Assembly (NCBI GenBank): GCA_963715195.1 | Contig: CAVQRT010000031.1 | Location: 64,001-128,000 of the forward strand | DNA length: 64,000 nt | From: Thermodesulfovibrionales bacterium | GTDB taxonomy: Bacteria > Nitrospirota > Thermodesulfovibrionia > Thermodesulfovibrionales > SM23-35 | Direction: 5' to 3' | In this document: positions 9,967 to 19,540 of the stretch, piece by piece | Numbering within the stretch: the first letter of the stretch is position 1 | Layout: each line of letters starts with the position of its first letter | Notes under the pieces: model-generated | Databases searched by the model: none | Seen by the model: the letters and a program-made list of their open reading frames with translations, nothing else | Told to the model about the DNA's origin: nothing | Program-made: the position numbers and the translations under genes

Positions 9967-10046
<80 letters not shown>

Positions 10047-10379
10047 TAAAATCCCTATTTTTCAATAAGTTACAATCATAAAAACGTCAAAAATACTGTG
10101 TCTGAACTGTGTCTAGAAATTCAAAAGGAAATACTCCCCACCTGCATAAAACCTTTAATTCTTTTTCGATTGCTTATGCCGTTTTCGCTATGTTTTTTTC
10201 CGCGTTACTTTTGTTGACTCCCCAAAAAGTCTTTACTACAACAAATCTTTACCTTTCCTTACTGCTTACTGAATGAGGCATTAAAAAGACGTATTCAGGC
10301 AGTGGAGCAGATTTTATAAGAACACATATGAATGATTTCGCAGAAGTATTAATGGAGATACTTTATACTAAGGTTTGAA

Positions 10380-10741: not shown

Positions 10742-11271
10742 GTCTGGTAGCCAGGGTTCATTGCTGAACCCCAGCCCCATTAGAACTGTGCTTGTCAGTT
10801 TCCCGACACACAGCTCAAGCTTTTCCTAAGCCACTTTCAGCAGCCGGTTTCACAACATCCAACGTCCAGCCCAAAACCTTTCTATGGCAACCACGATGAA
10901 TCAATCTCAGGTTTGACAAATTGTCTCTCCTCCGATAGCCGTGACGTCCGTGTAATCCCATATTAAAAGAGATTAACCGGCTATTCACCTTTTTGGTTCA
11001 AGCCTCTCAGCATCTTTGGCTTGTCTATGTTCACGAAGTTTATCAGCAGTTCACATATGTTGGTCATGCCATCAAGCCCGACACCTTATCCACCGCGATG
11101 CTGGCAGATATCTCATTGCCTCACGGCTTTGATTAGATCTTTCGATCAGGTTATCCTTTTCCTGCCACGCACTTTATTCAGGGCAGTAGGCTACCTCTAA
11201 CGGAATAGAGGGTTCCCTGATAACAATACTCTGCTATCTGAAACAATTACTTATGCGACTTCTTGTCGCAC
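10742..11271 (-). mobile_element. Group II intron, internally deleted (no RT)
   Basis: 5' GTGCGACAAGAAG at 11271; domain V GAGCTGTGTGTCGGGAAACTGACAAGCACAGTTC; domain VI hairpin ending CCAGAC at 10742; HNH C-terminal remnant DNLSNLRLIHRGCHRKV. Confidence 0.9.
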
Positions 11272-11460: not shown

Positions 11461-12255
11461 TCAGGGTTTTTTTGCCTTGACGTATGCCGAAAACACCATA
11501 TTCTCTACCCCTTCTCCGAAATTCCATCCTCTGATTATTTCATTACTCTTTTCTTTTTCCTTAATTATAGGTTTGGCAAATCCAGCTTTTTGGAGCATCC
11601 TCTTCAGTTCCTCCACGGGAACCGCACCGGTGATTCAGCCACTGTAGGCTTTCTCATTCTGCTTTATCGCTTCAGAGAATTCACCCTTTTTCAGGATATC
11701 CGAGATTGCCAGCCTCCCTCCCGGCTTTAGTACCCTGAATGCCTCCTGGAAGACCGCTTGTTTGTTTGGAGACAGATTGATTACGCAGTTCGATATAATC
11801 ACATCGACTGAATTGTCATCAACAGGAAGATGCTCAATATCTCCGTGCCTGAAATCAACATTCTTAAAGCTGAGTTTTTCTGCATTATCTTTAGCCTTTT
11901 GAACCATTTCCGGCGTCATATCCACTCCGATGACATATCCTTTCTTCCCCACTTTCATTGCGGAAAGAAACGCATCAAAGCCGGCACCACTTCCGAGGTC
12001 AAGAACGTGCTCTCCTTCTTTCAGCTCCGCTATTGCAAGAGGATTACCGCATCCAAGTCCGAGGTTTGCTTCGCCAAGCCCGATCTTCAAATCTTCTTCG
12101 GAATATCCTATAAGTTTTCCCGTTTCGAGAAGGCTCAGAGGTTTTATCTCAGGCGAGCAACATGTTGCGGGCATCGCACAGCATGAACCTTGTGAAGCGA
12201 TATTCGAATAGGTCTTTATCACAAGCTGTTTCAGTTTTGTTTTTTCTTTGTTCAT
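11461..12255 (-). CDS. arsM: Arsenite S-adenosylmethionine methyltransferase, predicted selenoprotein (TGA at 11635-11637; 264 aa with readthrough)
   Basis: [33 protein letters not shown]; frame continues [21 protein letters not shown]...[11 protein letters not shown]. Confidence 0.9.
11605..11624 (-). promoter_or_regulatory. Candidate bacterial SECIS of arsM
   Basis: CGGTTCC-CGTGGA-GGAACTG hairpin after a 10-nt spacer from the UGA; G in second loop position. Confidence 0.65.
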
Positions 12256-12266
12256 TATGATCTCAC

Positions 12267-12950
12267 TTATATGATTTCAAAAATATATGCAAGGCTGTAG
12301 TAGATTCCTACCAGAATAAAAATAGTACCAGTCACCTTTTTTGTATAAAACTCAATTCTTGCAATTCTGTAATAGAGATTGTTGATATACCCTGTGCCTG
12401 CTGCGACAAGAAAAGCAAAGAGCAGGACCGGAAGAGCTGTTCCGATCCCATAAATTAATGGGAGCCCTATCCCTGACTGTGCTTTCACTGCAATGGGAAT
12501 CAACCCTCCGAAGAACAGGGCGGCAGACACAGGACAAAATGCAAGGGCAAACAGGATTCCCAGAGGTAGTGAACCAATTGCTCCCTTATCAATCAACTTC
12601 TTTGTGACATCTTCGGATACCGATGGGATAGGTAAGGGTATTCGCAACAGGTCAAGCAGTACCATCCCGACGAGAATCAGTATGATGCCGAGGATTTTGT
12701 TGACATATCTCTGGAGGAAATCCGACAGGATCGGAACATCTACCAATGTTTTCACAATAAGGACACCAAGAACGATGTACGTGAGGCTTCTTCCAATGGT
12801 ATAGAGTATGCCGGATAAGAACACGACATTTTTCTGTGTAATTCTCTGTGATATAAATGATACAGCTGCTATATTCGTAGCCAATGGACAGGGACTGACA
12901 GATGTCAAAATCCCAAGCCAGACGGCTGAAGCCAGTAAGAACAATTCCAT
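12267..12950 (-). CDS. arsG: ArsG-family (CcdA/DsbD-like) membrane protein
   Basis: [13 protein letters not shown] and [14 protein letters not shown] motifs, multiple TM helices, ars context. Confidence 0.75.
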
Positions 12951-12953
12951 TGG

Positions 12954-13538
12954 TTATGTTTCCTTGAGAAATTTTCCTACTTCTTCTTTTACATACTGAA
13001 AGAATTTGTCTTTGTCTCTTACATGCTTCCATACGTCAGTAAGGTTCTTCCAGGTTACTTCCTTATCCTGCTTTACAAGAGAAATCACGAGGGATTTACT
13101 AAATAACTGGTAATCTTGAACATAGTGACGGTTTTCTGCTTCTTCAACATTAATAGGTTTAAATTCAAGTGTTCCGTTCTTCAGCTCGTTTGCGAAGTAC
13201 TGTTCAATGGCTTCTTTTGAATACTTCTCAATAGTCTGACATGTCGAACATCTGAATGTACCATGGAAATAATAGGCAATAACCTTTGCATTTTCAGCCT
13301 TTATTGTGGTTTCAGGCGAAGGAAGAGGCTTCTGTTGTTTCGTTGTAGTTTCTTCTGATGACTGGCTATCCGGGGCCGGTGCAGATTTCTCGGATGTGGC
13401 AATTGTATTGCTCTGTGTTGCTGTGATGTCTGTGGCATTACTTTCACTTCTCGGTGAGAATTCCTTATACATAAGAACCCCCAAACTCACAATCACGAAA
13501 ATGAAGAGCAGACTTTTAATCGTTTTTCTGATATCCAA
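12954..13538 (-). CDS. arsF: ArsF-family thioredoxin-like exported protein
   Basis: YYFHGTFRCSTC and WKNLTDVW motifs; immediately upstream of arsG. Confidence 0.7.
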   Translation of the reverse strand: MDIRKTIKSLLFIFVIVSLGVLMYKEFSPRSESNATDITATQSNTIATSEKSAPAPDSQSSEETTTKQQKPLPSPETTIKAENAKVIAYYFHGTFRCSTCQTIEKYSKEAIEQYFANELKNGTLEFKPINVEEAENRHYVQDYQLFSKSLVISLVKQDKEVTWKNLTDVWKHVRDKDKFFQYVKEEVGKFLKET

Positions 13539-13557
13539 TTACAACCTCCTTAACTAT

Positions 13558-14736
13558 TTATTCAATTATTGCTCCAAAAATTATTCCAGAAATCGTTGCC
13601 ATTATGACAACCAGACATACAAACACAATGGTCTTCTTTGTCCCTATTGCACGCCTGATAACCAGCATGTTGGGTAAGCTCAAAGCCGGACCTGCAAGAA
13701 GAAGGGCCAGCGCAGGACCTTTGCCCATTCCTGATCCAATCAGCCCCTGAAGTATCGGCACTTCTGTAAGGGTTGCAAAATACATGAATGCGCCAACAAA
13801 AGAAGAAAAGAAATTAGCGAAAAAGGAATTGCCACCGACCAGGTTGCGATATACTGTGAAGGGATGATTCCTTCATATCCGACTCTCCCGAGGAGAAATC
13901 CTGCAGCGAGAACGCCGCCTAAAAGAAGAGGCAGGATTTGTAGTGCAAGAATCCAGGATTGCTGTGTCCATTCTTTCAGTTCATCTTTCTTGAACCACTT
14001 TATAAGCATGACTGACAAAGAAAGAGCAAAAAAACCTGTAATCCACCATTTGTAATGATAGATCAGCCACCAGAGATTATGGGTCTCTTCAGGCGGTTTT
14101 CCCCAGTTTGCAAAGACGAGTATTGCGACCATCGAAAAGAAATAGGGGATTGTTTTCCCAAGAGAACGAACCTCTTTGGCATCGCTGAAATCGAAATCTT
14201 CTCCTTCCTGACGTGCTCTCTCCTCTTTCAGGAAGATAAGATGCATCAGGAGTCCGATCACAACACTGAAAACAACCGCACCGATTGCCCTTGCTAATCC
14301 CAGTTCCCATCCGAGTATTCGGGCGGTGAGAATGATAGCCAGCACATTGATTGCAGGACCGGAATAGAGGAATGCGATTGCAGGACCAAGACCTGCTCCC
14401 TCTCTGGTAGATGCCCATGAACAGGGGAAGGATTGTACATGAACATACCGCAAGGATTGAACCTGATACAGAAGCGACCGAGTATGAAAGGAATTTATTC
14501 GCCTTTGCCCCGAAATATTTCATTACCGAAGCCTGGCTGACAAATACCACGATGGCGCCTGCGATGAAGAAAGCAGGAATAAGGCAGAGCAGGACATGTT
14601 CCCGTGCATACCACTTGGTCAATGCAAGAGATTCATTGACTGCATTGGTAAACCGTGCATTCTCGATCGGCAGAAAATAGCAGATGAGAAACACTGTCAG
14701 GACAATCAGAAATTTGTATCTTTCTTTCATTTTCAT
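13558..14736 (-). CDS. arsP: DUF318/ArsP-family permease; two frameshifts (~14399, ~13840)
   Basis: EHVLLCLIPAFFIAGA, LAVCSCTILPLF, FLYSGPAIN, MYFATLTEVPI, LLAGPALSLP spread across three overlapping ORFs. Confidence 0.8.
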
Positions 14737-14751
14737 AAAGGCTTTGTACTT

Positions 14752-15811
14752 TCAATCTTGCAATACTCGGTCAGCAAAGTATTTCCTCTGAAAATAGAGT
14801 GCTACATTTACCAGTCCGATTAACACAGGAACTTCTACGAGAGGACCTATAACGGTTGCAAAGGCTACTCCGGAATTAATGCCAAACACTGCTACAGCAA
14901 CAGCAATGGCCAGCTCAAAATCATTGGAGGCAGCGGTAAAGCTCAACGTGGCGGATTTCGGATAATTCGCTCCAATTTTCTTTGCGATATAGAATGTGAC
15001 CAGGAACATAAAAACAAAATATATGAAAAGAGGGATGGCAATCCTTACCACATCAACAGGAAGCTTGATGATATATTCTCCTTTCAGGGAAAACATCACA
15101 AAGATGGTAAAAAGGAGTGCAACAAGGGTAATAGGGCTTATCTTGGGAATGAATTTATCATGATACCATTGCTTGCCTTTTGCGCTGACGAGAGTGAAAC
15201 GGGTGATTATGCCTCCGAGGAATGGTATCCCGAGGTATATGAATACACTCTTGGCAATTTCGCCAATCGTTACGTCAACAACAGCACCGCTAAGCCCGAG
15301 CATGGGAGGAAGTATCGTGACAAAGATCCACGCATAGACTGAATATGTAAGTACCTGAAACAGGGCATTAAAGGCAACCAGTCCGGCAACATAATCTGGG
15401 TCACCGCAGGCAAGATCATTCCATACGAGCACCATTGCGATACAGCGGGCAAGTCCTACAAGGATGATGCCGATCATATAGTCGGGATAACCTGATAGGA
15501 ACAATAATCGCCAGAACAAACATTACAATCGGCCCGACAATCCAGTTCTGGATGAGGCTTACTGCAAGAATCTTATAATTGCTGAAGACCTTTGGCAGTT
15601 CTTCATATCGGACCTTTGCCAGAGGCGGATACATCATCAGGATTAATCCAACAGCTATCGGGATATTGGTTGTACCAACCTGGAAAATGTTCCAGAAATC
15701 GGTAATCTTCGGATAAAAATACCCTGAAATAACCCCAACAGCCATAGCAAGGAAGATCCACAAGGTGAGAAATCGGTCAAGGAATGAAAGTTTTTTCACT
15801 ACTTCAGCCAT
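14752..15811 (-). CDS. acr3: ACR3-family arsenite efflux transporter; one frameshift (~15502)
   Basis: [46 protein letters not shown]. Confidence 0.92.
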
Positions 15812-16223
15812 GCTGTACTTCCTTGATAAAATCCAAAAGTCGCTCCTTGATTTCATTTCGGATTCTTCTAAACTCATTCAGTATTTCTTCCTCGGTGCCC
15901 TCAGCCTTTGCTGGGTCTTGAAGAGGCCAGTGAATTCTTGTGATCCCGGGAGGTGTCCATGGGCAGGCTTCAGCAGCATTGTCGCAGAGGGTGATAATAA
16001 CATCCATCTTCTTGAGCAGTTCTTCATCGACTGATTTTGACGTCTGGTTTGAAATATCTATGCCAATTTCTTTCATCACAGCGACAGCACGGGGATTTAC
16101 TCCCTGAGGACTGAGACCAGAGCTGTGTGCTTCAATCAGACCTTTCCCCAATTCCCGTGTAAAGCCCTCTGCCATCTGGGAACGGCAGGAATTCCCTGTG
16201 CATAAAAACATGATTTTCAGCAT
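15804..16223 (-). CDS. arsC: Arsenate reductase (LMW-PTP, thioredoxin-coupled)
   Basis: [17 protein letters not shown]...ACP, HWPLQDP. Confidence 0.92.
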
Positions 16224-16224
16224 A

Positions 16225-16597
16225 CTACCTCCCGCAGCAACTGCTCCTGAATTTCATCGGAACGACTTTCTCTTCTTTAGATTTGAGAAATTCTTGGAGT
16301 CTTATTTTGTCTGAATGAATTAAATCTCCTGTAGCTTTTTCGATAGTCGAGAAAAGAAGAAACCTCCTGAATATTTCTGAATCATCAAGACGATAATGAA
16401 TCCACTTGCCTACCCTTCTGTCTTTAACAAGTCCCGCTTCCTTGAGTACCCTTAAGATGAAAGGATATTTTCGGCTGAATAATATCAAGCGATGCGATAA
16501 TATCGCATACACAGAGTTCACCATGTTCCAATAGTTTTATTATTCTCAGCCGTGTCTCATCGGAGAGAGCCTTATACACTTGCAAGAGATCTTTCAT
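16225..16597 (-). CDS. arsR: ArsR/SmtB repressor; one frameshift (~16453)
   Basis: Manual translation from 16597 MKDLLQVYKALSDETRLRIIKLLEHGELCVCDII...ISFH joins VLKEAGLVKDRRVGKWIHYRL; ELCVCD As-sensing motif. Confidence 0.88.
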
Positions 16598-16598
16598 C

Positions 16599-16838
16599 CT
16601 ATGACTCCTTCTTGAGTAAATCTTTTACTTTTTCAATCGTCGGAAGTGGTTTGCCGGAATATTTCAGCTTGCCGTTTATCACAATCCCGGGAGTGGACAT
16701 CGTATACTTCATAATCTCGAACATGTCTGTAACCTTTTCTACCTTTGCGTCAATTCCAAGCTCCTTAACAGCGGCTTTTACCATCTCCTCTACCTTTTGA
16801 CAATTTGGGCAACCGGGTCCCAATACCTTAATTTCCAT
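16599..16838 (-). CDS. Small redox-active disulfide protein (MTH895/ArsE-like thioredoxin)
   Basis: IKVLGPGCPNC, MSTPGIVING. Confidence 0.85.
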   Translation of the reverse strand: MEIKVLGPGCPNCQKVEEMVKAAVKELGIDAKVEKVTDMFEIMKYTMSTPGIVINGKLKYSGKPLPTIEKVKDLLKKES

Positions 16839-16985
16839 ACCTTAATCCTCCTTATTAAATAGTGCTGAAATTAACCTGATAAATTCTTATATTAGATAGA
16901 AGCATGTGTATGTGAATCGGATAAATTGCTTTAAATAAAAAGAATCATGTTCAAAATATAAATTATTATTTATATGTAAGTCAAC

Positions 16986-17294
16986 ATGAAAATTGATTGT
17001 TACCTATCAAGAGGCTGTGCAGCCGAGAGTGTTTTAAGGGAGAACATAAATCAGGCCCTTATCCAAGAAGGTCTGCATGCTGAGGTAAATTATTACAGAA
17101 TATCAGAAGGGGAAGCAGAGAAGCTCAGTCTAAAAGGTTCCCCTTCGATATTGATTGATGGAAGGGATATACAGCCGATGAATGTGCAGGGGTTTTCTTG
17201 AAGAACGTTTATGGATGAGTCTGGAAGGCTCTCGCCAGCCCCTTCTATTGCAACACTGAGGCGTGTTATCAGAGAATCAATAATAAAGACTTAA
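16986..17294 (+). CDS. Thioredoxin-fold protein, predicted selenoprotein (TGA at 17199-17201; 102 aa with readthrough)
   Basis: GSPSILIDGRD then FS-U-RTFMDESGRLSPAPSIATLRRVIRESIIKT*; hairpin GAGTC-TGGAA-GGCTC at 17217-17231. Confidence 0.75.
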
Positions 17295-17542
17295 CCCGCA
17301 TGCTTTAATCCCAAATCAACACTATTATCTCTGTACGATTCTAAAGATTTTCAGATGTACTGTTGTTTCTTATTTTTTAGCCGGTGTGCGTCTTTGATGA
17401 AGCTCCAATATTTTGAAACGATGAAAACTCTTTGTTCGTAGATGAAGCCCTCGAAAATGACATGTTTCCTTCGGAACTGTTCCCAAGGCAAAAAATAGTG
17501 TATTATTTATACGATAGAACAAAAAGTTATGGGTCGAGGTAC

Positions 17543-17569
17543 GAGGTTCAAATTCTCTCGCCCTGACCA
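17543..17569 (+). repeat. Degenerate duplicate of tRNA-Pro 3' end (att-like)
   Basis: GAGGTTCAAATTCTCTCGCCCTGACCA vs tRNA GAGGTTCAAATCCTCTCGCCCCGACCA, 2 mismatches. Confidence 0.85.
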
Positions 17570-17605
17570 GGTAAATGTATGAATTTACAACAAGAGGAGG
17601 GTACT

Positions 17606-18865
17606 ATGAAGAAATTTGGGGTTGTCATCTTGGTTGTACTGTTTTTGTTGTCGTTATCTGCCATCGCTTCGGCAACAAACGGATACTTTACTCACGGTTA
17701 CAGTATCAAAAACAAGGCATTGGCCGGTGCCGGAGTTGCGCTGCCGCTTGATGCTCTGTCAGCATCAATGAACCCGGCAGGAATGGTCTCTGTAGGCACG
17801 AGGATTGATGTTGGCCTCACATTATTTAACCCCAACCGAGAATATACGATAAAAGGAACCCCATCTCCACCTCCTGCTTTTGGTCTGATGCCGGGTACAG
17901 TCGAAAGCGATTCGGAATGGTTCGTAATCCCTGCATTTGGCTTCAATAAAATGCTGAATGAAAGGAGCTCACTGGGGGTATCGATTTACGGCAACGGCGG
18001 AATGAATACTGATTATGACACCAATACATTTTATCTTTCATCTCCGACGGGAGTCGACCTCATGCAATTATTTTTGGCCCCTACTTATGCAATAAAGCTT
18101 CATCCGAAACATGCAGTAGGTATCAGCCCGATTCTGGCATATCAGAGTTTTGAGGCACAGGGACTTCAGGCTTTTGGCAATTTTTCAACCAATCCGTCAA
18201 AACTTACTAATAATGGGCATGATAAATCATTTGGATATGGAGTGAGGATCGGATATCTCGGTGAGGTCCTAACAGATTTGTTCCTCGGTGTTTCATATCA
18301 GACCAAAATTTTTATGGACGAATTTGACGATTATAAAGGTCTCTTTGCGGAACAGGGAGATTTTGATATTCCTTCCAACTGGACTATTGGGGTTGCCTAC
18401 AAGGCAACCCCGTCCCTCACCTTTGCGGCCGATGTACAAACTATTTATTACGGTGAAGTCGATTCAATCGCAAATCCTCTTGTCGCAAGCAAATTAGTGC
18501 AGGGCAAAACACCTCTTGGAAGCGACAAAGGAGCGGGGTTTGGCTGGGATGATATGACCATCTTTAAATTTGGAGTTCAATGGCAGAGCAGTGAAGACTG
18601 GATATGGAGAGGCGGTTTTTCATACGGGGAACAGCCGATTCCTGACAGTGAGGTGCTCTTCAATATCCTCGCTCCCGGTGTTATTGAATACCATGCGACA
18701 TTGGGAGTGACAAAGAAAATGGGCAATAACCATGAACTGGATTTTACCATCATGCGGGGATTTCCGAAAGAAGTCGAAGGCACGAATCCATTAGACCCGC
18801 AGCAGACGATCAAACTGAAAATGGATCAGTGGGAATTCTCGGCAGGGTATTCCTATAAATTCTAG
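17606..18865 (+). CDS. FadL/TodX (OMPP1) outer-membrane transporter
   Basis: Signal peptide, ATNGYFTHG, NPAG, GNGGMNTDY, C-terminal YSYKF; RBS GAGGAGG. Confidence 0.85.
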   Translation: MKKFGVVILVVLFLLSLSAIASATNGYFTHGYSIKNKALAGAGVALPLDALSASMNPAGMVSVGTRIDVGLTLFNPNREYTIKGTPSPPPAFGLMPGTVESDSEWFVIPAFGFNKMLNERSSLGVSIYGNGGMNTDYDTNTFYLSSPTGVDLMQLFLAPTYAIKLHPKHAVGISPILAYQSFEAQGLQAFGNFSTNPSKLTNNGHDKSFGYGVRIGYLGEVLTDLFLGVSYQTKIFMDEFDDYKGLFAEQGDFDIPSNWTIGVAYKATPSLTFAADVQTIYYGEVDSIANPLVASKLVQGKTPLGSDKGAGFGWDDMTIFKFGVQWQSSEDWIWRGGFSYGEQPIPDSEVLFNILAPGVIEYHATLGVTKKMGNNHELDFTIMRGFPKEVEGTNPLDPQQTIKLKMDQWEFSAGYSYKF

Positions 18866-18944: not shown

Positions 18945-19406
18945 CTATGTGTAAAGGAGGACCTTGCAGTCCTTTGCGTGTTTGAGAAAATCTTCTGCTG
19001 ACTGGATTACTACTCCATCAATAAAATCCTTCTGTTTAAACCCCATCATATCAGTTGTCATCTTGCAGGCTATAAACTTCACTCCTTCAAGCAGAGCCAT
19101 CTCCTGGAGATCTCCGAGCCCCGGGATATTGGCCTTTGTCAGCTTGCTTTTCATCATCCAGGTAGCAATTGAAGACATTCCCGGAACAGCTCCCATAAAT
19201 CCGGGGGGTTGAAATTTAGCCTTGTCAACCCATCCTTGACGTATTACGTTCAGTCCCATAAAAGTGTAAAAGATTGTTGCATCCATACCCAAACGCACAG
19301 CATTGATCCCAAGAACAAGCCCTGGGTAGGCACCATCAAGGGTATCCTTTGATGTAATAAACGCTGCTGCTTCTTTGATCTTTTTCCCTTCTTCACCTGG
19401 TTTCAT
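18945..19406 (-). CDS. DsrE/DsrF/DrsH-like (DsrE2-type) sulfur-relay protein
   Basis: TLDGAYP, IFYTFMGL, GVKFIACKMTTDMMG. Confidence 0.8.
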   Translation of the reverse strand: MKPGEEGKKIKEAAAFITSKDTLDGAYPGLVLGINAVRLGMDATIFYTFMGLNVIRQGWVDKAKFQPPGFMGAVPGMSSIATWMMKSKLTKANIPGLGDLQEMALLEGVKFIACKMTTDMMGFKQKDFIDGVVIQSAEDFLKHAKDCKVLLYT

Positions 19407-19540
19407 ATACTCCTCTCTTTCATTTTCTATCGGGCCTGTTTTCATTCATTCTTGAACCATCTTTGATTGAAAGCAGACCTGAATATATTTAATCCTAATA
19501 ATGATACAGCACGCGAGAAAAGTCAAATGTTCTAATGAAT

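Follow-up and report, generated by a model that had tools for sequence, protein, structure and literature searches.

An ars operon of Thermodesulfovibrionales with a likely selenocysteine-type ArsM and a divergent gene for a DF-like selenoprotein

In 2019 Chen, Zhang and Rosen reportedly tied the ArsEFG proteins of Shewanella putrefaciens 200 to roxarsone and nitarsone resistance, and Haft and Gwadz are said to have described in 2023 the SAO system of Clostridioides difficile (SaoE, SaoT, SaoL). Both are close to the system analyzed here, an arsenic resistance (ars) cluster at 11461-17294 of a 64,000-nucleotide stretch of a Thermodesulfovibrionales bacterium (contig CAVQRT010000031.1), hereafter the window. 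Eight minus-strand genes, arsE-arsR-arsC-acr3-arsP-arsF-arsG-arsM (11461-16838), form a single run, and a 102-codon gene for a DF-like protein diverges from it on the plus strand, starting at 16986. The reading we favor, with fair though not full confidence, is that this is an ArsR-controlled operon predicted to reduce, methylate, and export arsenic, that ArsM likely has selenocysteine (Sec) at its arsenic-binding site, and that the divergent DF-like protein is probably a co-regulated accessory and not the reductant of ArsM.

All three proteins encoded by the window arsE, arsF, and arsG pass the cut-offs of the Shewanella families (TIGR00412, NF040494, and NF040495), whereas here four genes separate arsE from arsFG and a Sec-type arsM comes after arsFG. 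Ars operons with ArsR, thioredoxin-type ArsC, Acr3, ArsP, and ArsM, as set out in the available part of PMC6205960, hold the same gene families; to these the window adds arsF-arsG, the Sec-type ArsM, and the DF-like selenoprotein. The arsR5-arsP-arsE operon of Pseudodesulfovibrio mercurii ND132, whose ArsE and ArsP are up-regulated by arsenic according to the accessible text of bioRxiv 10.1101/2022.10.17.512643, also shares gene families with the window but is without ArsM. The likeness to SAO, judged from NCBIfam names and a table in PMC13188914, lies in selenoproteins, an ArsP-like permease, a small thioredoxin-like protein, and a MerB-like lyase; Se-dependent organometal(loid) systems have thus already been proposed. 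The SAO system differs in having an ATP-binding cassette (ABC) transporter, which the window cluster lacks, and in its profiles: the permease of an intact relative scored 116 against the SaoE cut-off of 325, and ArsE scored 21 against 65 for SaoT. With no SaoE, SaoT, SaoL, or Sao ABC member scoring above its cut-off, membership in the SAO system was rejected.

The sequence-only reading had called the cluster the best candidate for an undescribed system in the window. That went too far, since curated families exist for all of its parts. Sec-ArsM, ArsEFG, and DF are all catalogued, and what is new here is the arsFG-Sec-arsM operon and its operator. We found no literature, by title or abstract opening, on this operon, on the palindromic operator, or on DF in ars operons; primary ArsEFG and SAO papers or their supplements could already describe these.

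Gene content and related loci

Protein identities were assigned by family profile scores against curated cut-offs (NCBIfam, Pfam), and all nine genes were found where the sequence-only reading had placed them. From the 5' end of the minus-strand run, arsE (16599-16838) encodes an MTH895/ArsE CxxC thioredoxin-like protein (TIGR00412, 90.6 against 62), arsR (16225-16597) a repressor with a C-terminal CC, and arsC (15804-16223) a thioredoxin-type arsenate reductase (TIGR02691, 179 against 174.3). They are followed by the arsenite exporter gene acr3 (14752-15811) and an arsP-like permease gene (13558-14730). The matches of ArsR and of Acr3 (TIGR00832) are each split in two pieces, and that of the permease (PF03773, ArsP_1) in three, every piece above the cut-off of 32.3. 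The run ends with arsF (12954-13538; NF040494, 125.8 against 60), arsG (12267-12950; NF040495, 274.4 against 200), and arsM (11461-12255; NF008823, 334.4 against 263). ArsE, ArsF, and ArsG are therefore all above their family cut-offs within one operon. Neighboring genes of the run are separated by gaps of about 20 nt or smaller, or have overlapping ends.

In a genome of the same family (G013) all nine genes are intact, in identical order and orientation, and the arsF-arsG-TGA-arsM part of the run is present also in G010 and G108. The arsF-arsG-Sec-arsM operon thus recurs across relatives, in genome and metagenome loci alike.

Probable selenocysteine in ArsM and in the DF-like protein

The two in-frame TGA codons lie at 11637-11635 (arsM, U207) and 17199-17201 (DF-like gene, U72). 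The genome that holds the window (G000) encodes selA, selB, selD (with a TGA inside selD too), and tRNA-Sec, and selA was found in 140 of 151 genomes of the order. The aligned codon is TGA in all 64 DF loci and in 31 of 33 arsM loci, the other two having a Cys codon; metagenomes added 80 arsM loci kept out of 156, of which 78 could be scored, with 67 TGA and 11 Cys codons. Downstream of the arsM TGA, a hairpin of 7 bp with a 6-nt loop resembles a selenocysteine insertion sequence (SECIS; 11605-11624, minus strand). It is paired in 91% of cells across 31 sequences, with two compensatory pairs, against at most 57% in slid controls, a test that favors the hairpin since the structure was derived from the same 31 sequences. 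The two Cys-type arsM genes are without the hairpin sequence. The SECIS-like hairpin of the DF-like gene (17217-17231, plus strand; GAGTC/GGCTC stem, 5-nt loop) is conserved, yet confounded by the conserved ESGRL coding sequence. Together, the Sec machinery, the codon conservation, and the covariation of the arsM hairpin agree with the original proposal of Sec at both sites, and on this comparative evidence both TGA codons very likely encode Sec.

ArsM is a predicted arsenite methyltransferase of 264 amino acids, with a UITG motif and a single Sec. Its Cys69, Cys157, and Sec207 align with Cys72, Cys174, and Cys224 of CmArsM, of which we take C174 and C224 to be the arsenic-binding residues. 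Among the 151 genomes of the order, 28 of 34 arsM matches carry Sec. Sec-ArsM is already catalogued among bacterial selenoproteins, as tables of PMC13188914 and PMC9312934 show; the former lists a selenoprotein arsenite methyltransferase with a UxxG motif and credits it to Fomenko 2007. The window protein shares with the Sec-ArsM family NF008823 the motif, the single Sec, and an above-cut-off score. It differs in its linkage to arsFG or arsE and in being unfused to AhpD or DUF2284, with scores for NF041537 and NF041536 far below cut-off.

The DF-like protein (102 amino acids; 16986-17294, plus strand) matched model positions 2-94 of 96 of the DF family NF049942 (E = 1.5e-13), with a score of 50.6 that falls short of the cut-off, 70; two Cys-type relatives that a DF profile retrieved pass it, at 86.4 and 79.2. 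By these profile scores we assign the protein to a divergent branch of the DF family. Its structure model, with a predicted local distance difference test (pLDDT) score of 88, has a thioredoxin-like fold (best Foldseek E value, 2e-3; VIA Z, 8.3, with a root mean square deviation of 2.5 over 79 aligned positions). The sequence-only reading had called it a Sec-thioredoxin, but there is no CxxC or UxxC: the motif is C11-x-x-E, with the Sec 61 residues further on. With that active site absent, a classical thioredoxin or Sec-thioredoxin is ruled out, and the protein is better described as DF-like. All 40 DF sequences compared share Cys5, Gly51-Ser52-Pro53, and Sec72-Arg73, and at least 90% have Cys11, which a weak match (E = 0.047) places opposite the first Cys of the MTH895 CxxC.

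The deep-Sep paper (PMC12013277), in its available text, reports DF from a single genome, without a domain and without TGA-containing homologues in other organisms. Sec at the conserved C-terminal xCR site is common to that protein and ours, whereas here TGA forms occur in 43 of the 151 genomes of the order, with a thioredoxin fold, an ars-operon context, and MerB fusions. DF was found in 21 of 121 phylum genomes, and beyond the sampled phylum its distribution was thinly covered, by 20 loci. Relatives of the window protein are labeled Thermodesulfovibrionales and Nitrospirota. All 12 relatives returned from the protein database end at the TGA, so the family is under-annotated. The ratio of nonsynonymous to synonymous substitution rates (dN/dS) is about 0.16 for DF and about 0.14-0.17 for its divergent copies, indicating purifying selection on the latter. 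The DF tree is poorly resolved; on it, 7 changes account for the ars label, compared with 19 after shuffling.

Fusions indicate possible partners. Four genomes have a fusion of Sec-DF with a MerB-like organomercurial lyase (L092:5309-6289, L129, L132, and L133), and two have one of Cys-type DF with a thioredoxin-type ArsC domain (L141:2632-3357 and L143:2286-2996). Two further loci have a C-terminal extension. A word-index search for longer DF fusions returned none or one, which is weak evidence, since the genomes did show fusions.

Two further settings of DF were seen. The DF genes of a Nitrospiria branch (L063-L066) have perR, rubrerythrin-like, and thioredoxin genes nearby, which suggests an oxidative-stress role for that branch. 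At L057:8001-11436, a DF-arsE-arsR-arsC-acr3 run is followed directly by hgcA (NF040863, above cut-off), a further link between ars and hgc genes.

Candidate operator, gene neighborhoods and the question of a selenoprotein pair

The 147-nt gap between arsE and the DF-like gene contains a palindrome, ATATAAA-N6-TTTATAT (16956-16975), which overlaps a promoter candidate, TTGACT-18-TATATT (16984-16955, minus strand), and ends 10 nt before the DF start codon. We built an operator matrix from 8 sites and applied a threshold score of 17.5. In 1.11 Mb of fetched loci, 27 sites reached it, of which 22 head ars operons, 16 of these outside the training set. The 2.8-Mb own genome has 3 such sites, the two best, both training sites, at its two DF/arsE junctions. 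DF is downstream of the operator and in the same direction in 12 loci plus 3 more of 18 family loci, and divergent from it in 5. A general promoter and terminator scan stayed at chance level overall (10 against 13.2 and 5 against 5.8). We infer that ArsR is the predicted binder of this candidate operator, and arsenic-responsive control of the divergent DF gene, as first suggested, is likely through their sharing of the site.

Sharing a regulator differs from forming a pair. The sequence-only reading had proposed that the two selenoproteins may be enzyme and reductant, and DF as a dedicated reductant of Sec-ArsM, in the manner of a glutaredoxin/MsrA tandem, has some points in its favor. A Sec-Sec tandem precedent is cited in the consulted part of PMC13188914; one locus (L058) has a fusion of DF with a different, MduS-like methyltransferase; and of 11 metagenome loci with a Cys-type arsM, 2 have DF two genes upstream of it, G113 having DF near another such gene. 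The two TGA genes also share one cluster in G000, G013, and G010, so they do occur together outside the window. Pairing as a general rule was not borne out. In the survey of the order's 151 genomes, our queries matched DF in 43 and TGA-arsM in 28; 9 genomes have both, where 7.97 would be expected (p = 0.65), with 34 of the 43 DF genomes lacking a TGA-arsM match and 19 of the 28 TGA-arsM genomes lacking a DF match. DF adjoins only 1 of the 67 metagenomic TGA-arsM loci, and the second DF copy of the own genome sits at an arsE-arsR-arsP operon that has no arsM. Both genome co-occurrence and gene neighborhood thus reject a general DF-ArsM pairing, and we consider a dedicated Sec-Sec couple very unlikely.

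Neighborhoods were read within a 6-kb radius in 82 fetched stretches, many of them cut by contig ends. Around 47 DF copies we counted arsE 20 times, arsR 20, acr3 15, a second permease 13, arsC 12, and arsP 7, while arsM stood beside 3, one of these a Cys form. DF and arsE were found together in 27 genomes where 17.4 would be expected, a count inflated because kin are not independent. Around the 67 metagenomic TGA-arsM loci, the neighbors were arsG 18, arsF 16, acr3 15, arsE 14, arsR 11, arsP 8, and DF 1; 29 of these loci had at least 2 kb upstream, and 11 of those 29 were without any ars gene. Nine metagenome loci, mostly of a distant clade, have arsE no more than about 0.45 kb upstream of TGA-arsM. 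By these counts, the genes that accompany Sec-ArsM are arsFG or arsE, and those that accompany DF are arsE and arsR.

Some individual loci deserve mention. The own genome has a second, intact arsE-arsR-arsP operon (G000:C6:26110-28492) with its own divergent TGA-DF gene and the same operator; it is followed by an open reading frame (ORF) that we take to be FdhD-like and by a membrane protein gene. In L216:3806-5215 and L220:921-2448, TGA-DF is followed by a small AbrB-like ORF, presumably akin to the HgcAB-associated protein, and then by a Cys-type arsM.

A possible thiol relay, state of the cluster and meaning

ArsG (12267-12950) is a CcdA/DsbD-like membrane protein that scores above the cut-offs of PF13386 (DsbD_2, 64.4 against 24.9) and PF02683 (DsbD_TM, 30.3 against 27.1), and its Cys21 and Cys139, in CP motifs, are kept in 20 of 20 relatives. 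Its structure model (pLDDT 53) was too poor for use, and no sequence match was found in the PDB. ArsF has a basic N terminus, a hydrophobic helix as anchor, a low-complexity linker, and then a CxxC domain, the CxxC being kept in 20 of 21 relatives; a plasmid search for ArsF gave 1 record. This anatomy is as the sequence-only reading had described it, and it fits an outward electron relay from ArsG to ArsF, better than it fits the name "efflux permease" that ArsG carries in the Shewanella system. That name belongs to a different account, in which ArsEFG would serve to reduce nitro groups on aromatic arsenicals, ArsG would be the efflux permease, and neither ArsM recycling nor an electron relay would be involved. 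The curated family names say as much, both proteins being above cut-off, and the title of Chen, Zhang and Rosen 2019 reportedly links ArsEFG to roxarsone and nitarsone resistance. Against this stand the DsbD_2 and DsbD_TM scores, the two invariant Cys of ArsG, and the membrane anchor of ArsF, which points to export. Nitroaromatic arsenicals are moreover synthetic compounds (PMC13091928, in its accessible part), which makes them an improbable selective force behind so diverged a module. We regard the nitroaromatic account as unlikely and continue with the relay.

The favored reading would then work as follows. Bound to the palindrome (16956-16975), ArsR would keep the operon repressed, and probably the divergent DF gene too, until As(III) binds to ArsR. 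From what is known of their families, ArsC would reduce As(V) to As(III) and Acr3 would export As(III). ArsM would methylate As(III) with S-adenosylmethionine, Sec207 taking the place of the Cys224 ligand as in the alignment, and the ArsP-like permease, of putative specificity, would export trivalent methylarsenic, MAs(III). Motifs and topology suggest ArsE, with its CxxC, as the likeliest protein to reduce ArsM in the cytoplasm and to donate electrons to ArsG, which would pass them on through its two invariant membrane Cys to an anchored, probably periplasmic ArsF. Judging from fusions and gene order, DF may act through Cys11 and Sec72 to reduce ArsC-type or MerB-type enzymes or to take metalloid from them.

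Several observations weigh against parts of this reading. Taken alone, the folding z-scores of the two SECIS regions (window sequences) are not significant. The 300 nt upstream of stand-alone arsM and DF genes held no high-scoring operator, and a Shine-Dalgarno motif is missing before the ATG in divergent DF copies. Within 6 kb, 25 of 47 DF copies and 25 of 34 arsM copies have none of the queried ars genes, many of the contigs being short. Of the two DF-ArsC fusions, one no longer has its first catalytic Cys. ArsG occurs in only 6 of the 151 genomes of the order, all of one family, and in 23 of 57 genomes of that family; the module is thus lineage-limited and its loci are kin. Finally, four frame-breaking indels in 5.4 kb exceed the background of the genome (Poisson p of about 5e-4).

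In all, DNA alignment with relatives revealed five single-base indels, which were absent from the earlier reading: in arsR, one extra base at about 16455; in acr3, one extra base at about 15505, internally, and one at about 14770, near the 3' end; and in arsP, one extra base at about 14400 and one missing at about 13842. They could mean that arsR, acr3, and arsP are true pseudogenes in a decaying island, where the pathway works only partly and paralogues elsewhere help, an account that the excess of indels favors. The borders of the region also agree with it. The cluster is flanked by tRNA-Pro (9967-10052) and a degenerate, attachment-site-like copy of the tRNA 3' end, 10014-10052, on the plus strand at 17538-17576 (39 nt, 82%). 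Between them lie 7.5 kb with 42.8% guanine plus cytosine (GC) against 46.5% in the flanks, a stretch that resembles a small island; a group II intron remnant (10742-11212, minus strand; Rfam RF00029 and RF02012), without an intact reverse transcriptase ORF, lies within it, and the ORF list shows no integrase in it. Potential helpers exist as well, with intact arsR-arsP on contig C6 and arsC on C7 of the own genome.

Other evidence speaks for errors. The broken genes have no in-frame stops, and their dN/dS of about 0.03-0.06 is not above that of the intact genes of the cluster (about 0.06-0.10, with synonymous divergence near saturation). Frameshifts affect 7 of 95 gene matches in the assembly, and a second acr3 (G000:C30:243302-244827) and an EF-Tu-like match (C36:20738-21635) are likewise split across frames, which points to indel errors in the assembly. 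Single, low-depth contigs have one base fewer at 14401, 14768, and 15507, and a second contig comparison had no indel rows, with those places barely covered; both comparisons involve related strains only and cannot settle the indels. We read the indels in arsR, acr3, and arsP as assembly errors or very recent mutations, assembly error being the more likely. True decay of the window copy is a possible reading, and the decaying-island account as a whole seems to us rather improbable. Just beyond the island lie genes for a FadL/TodX-family outer-membrane protein (17579-18865, plus strand) and a DsrE2-like protein (18945-19445, minus strand).

Beyond the favored reading, a wider one may be ventured, which we hold tentatively and consider doubtful. 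It joins the parts into one redox chain, from ArsE to Sec-ArsM and from ArsE through ArsG to periplasmic ArsF, with ArsG carrying electrons instead of pumping arsenicals. DF would be a Se-based hand-off domain for metalloids, whose distant Cys11 and Sec72 take As(III) or Hg(II) products from ArsC and MerB or re-reduce these enzymes. Uncultured Nitrospirota would then be widespread Se-dependent arsenic methylators, with genes that gene callers have truncated.

According to the available text of bioRxiv 10.1101/2023.01.09.523296, it is still an open question which organisms methylate arsenic in the absence of oxygen and for what reason. A lineage with mostly Sec-ArsM (28 of 34 matches in the 151 genomes) would tie arsenic methylation to selenium supply. 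The operon is a natural setting for testing the ArsG/ArsF electron relay, and the operator, together with the fusions, gives the uncharacterized DF family a testable role.

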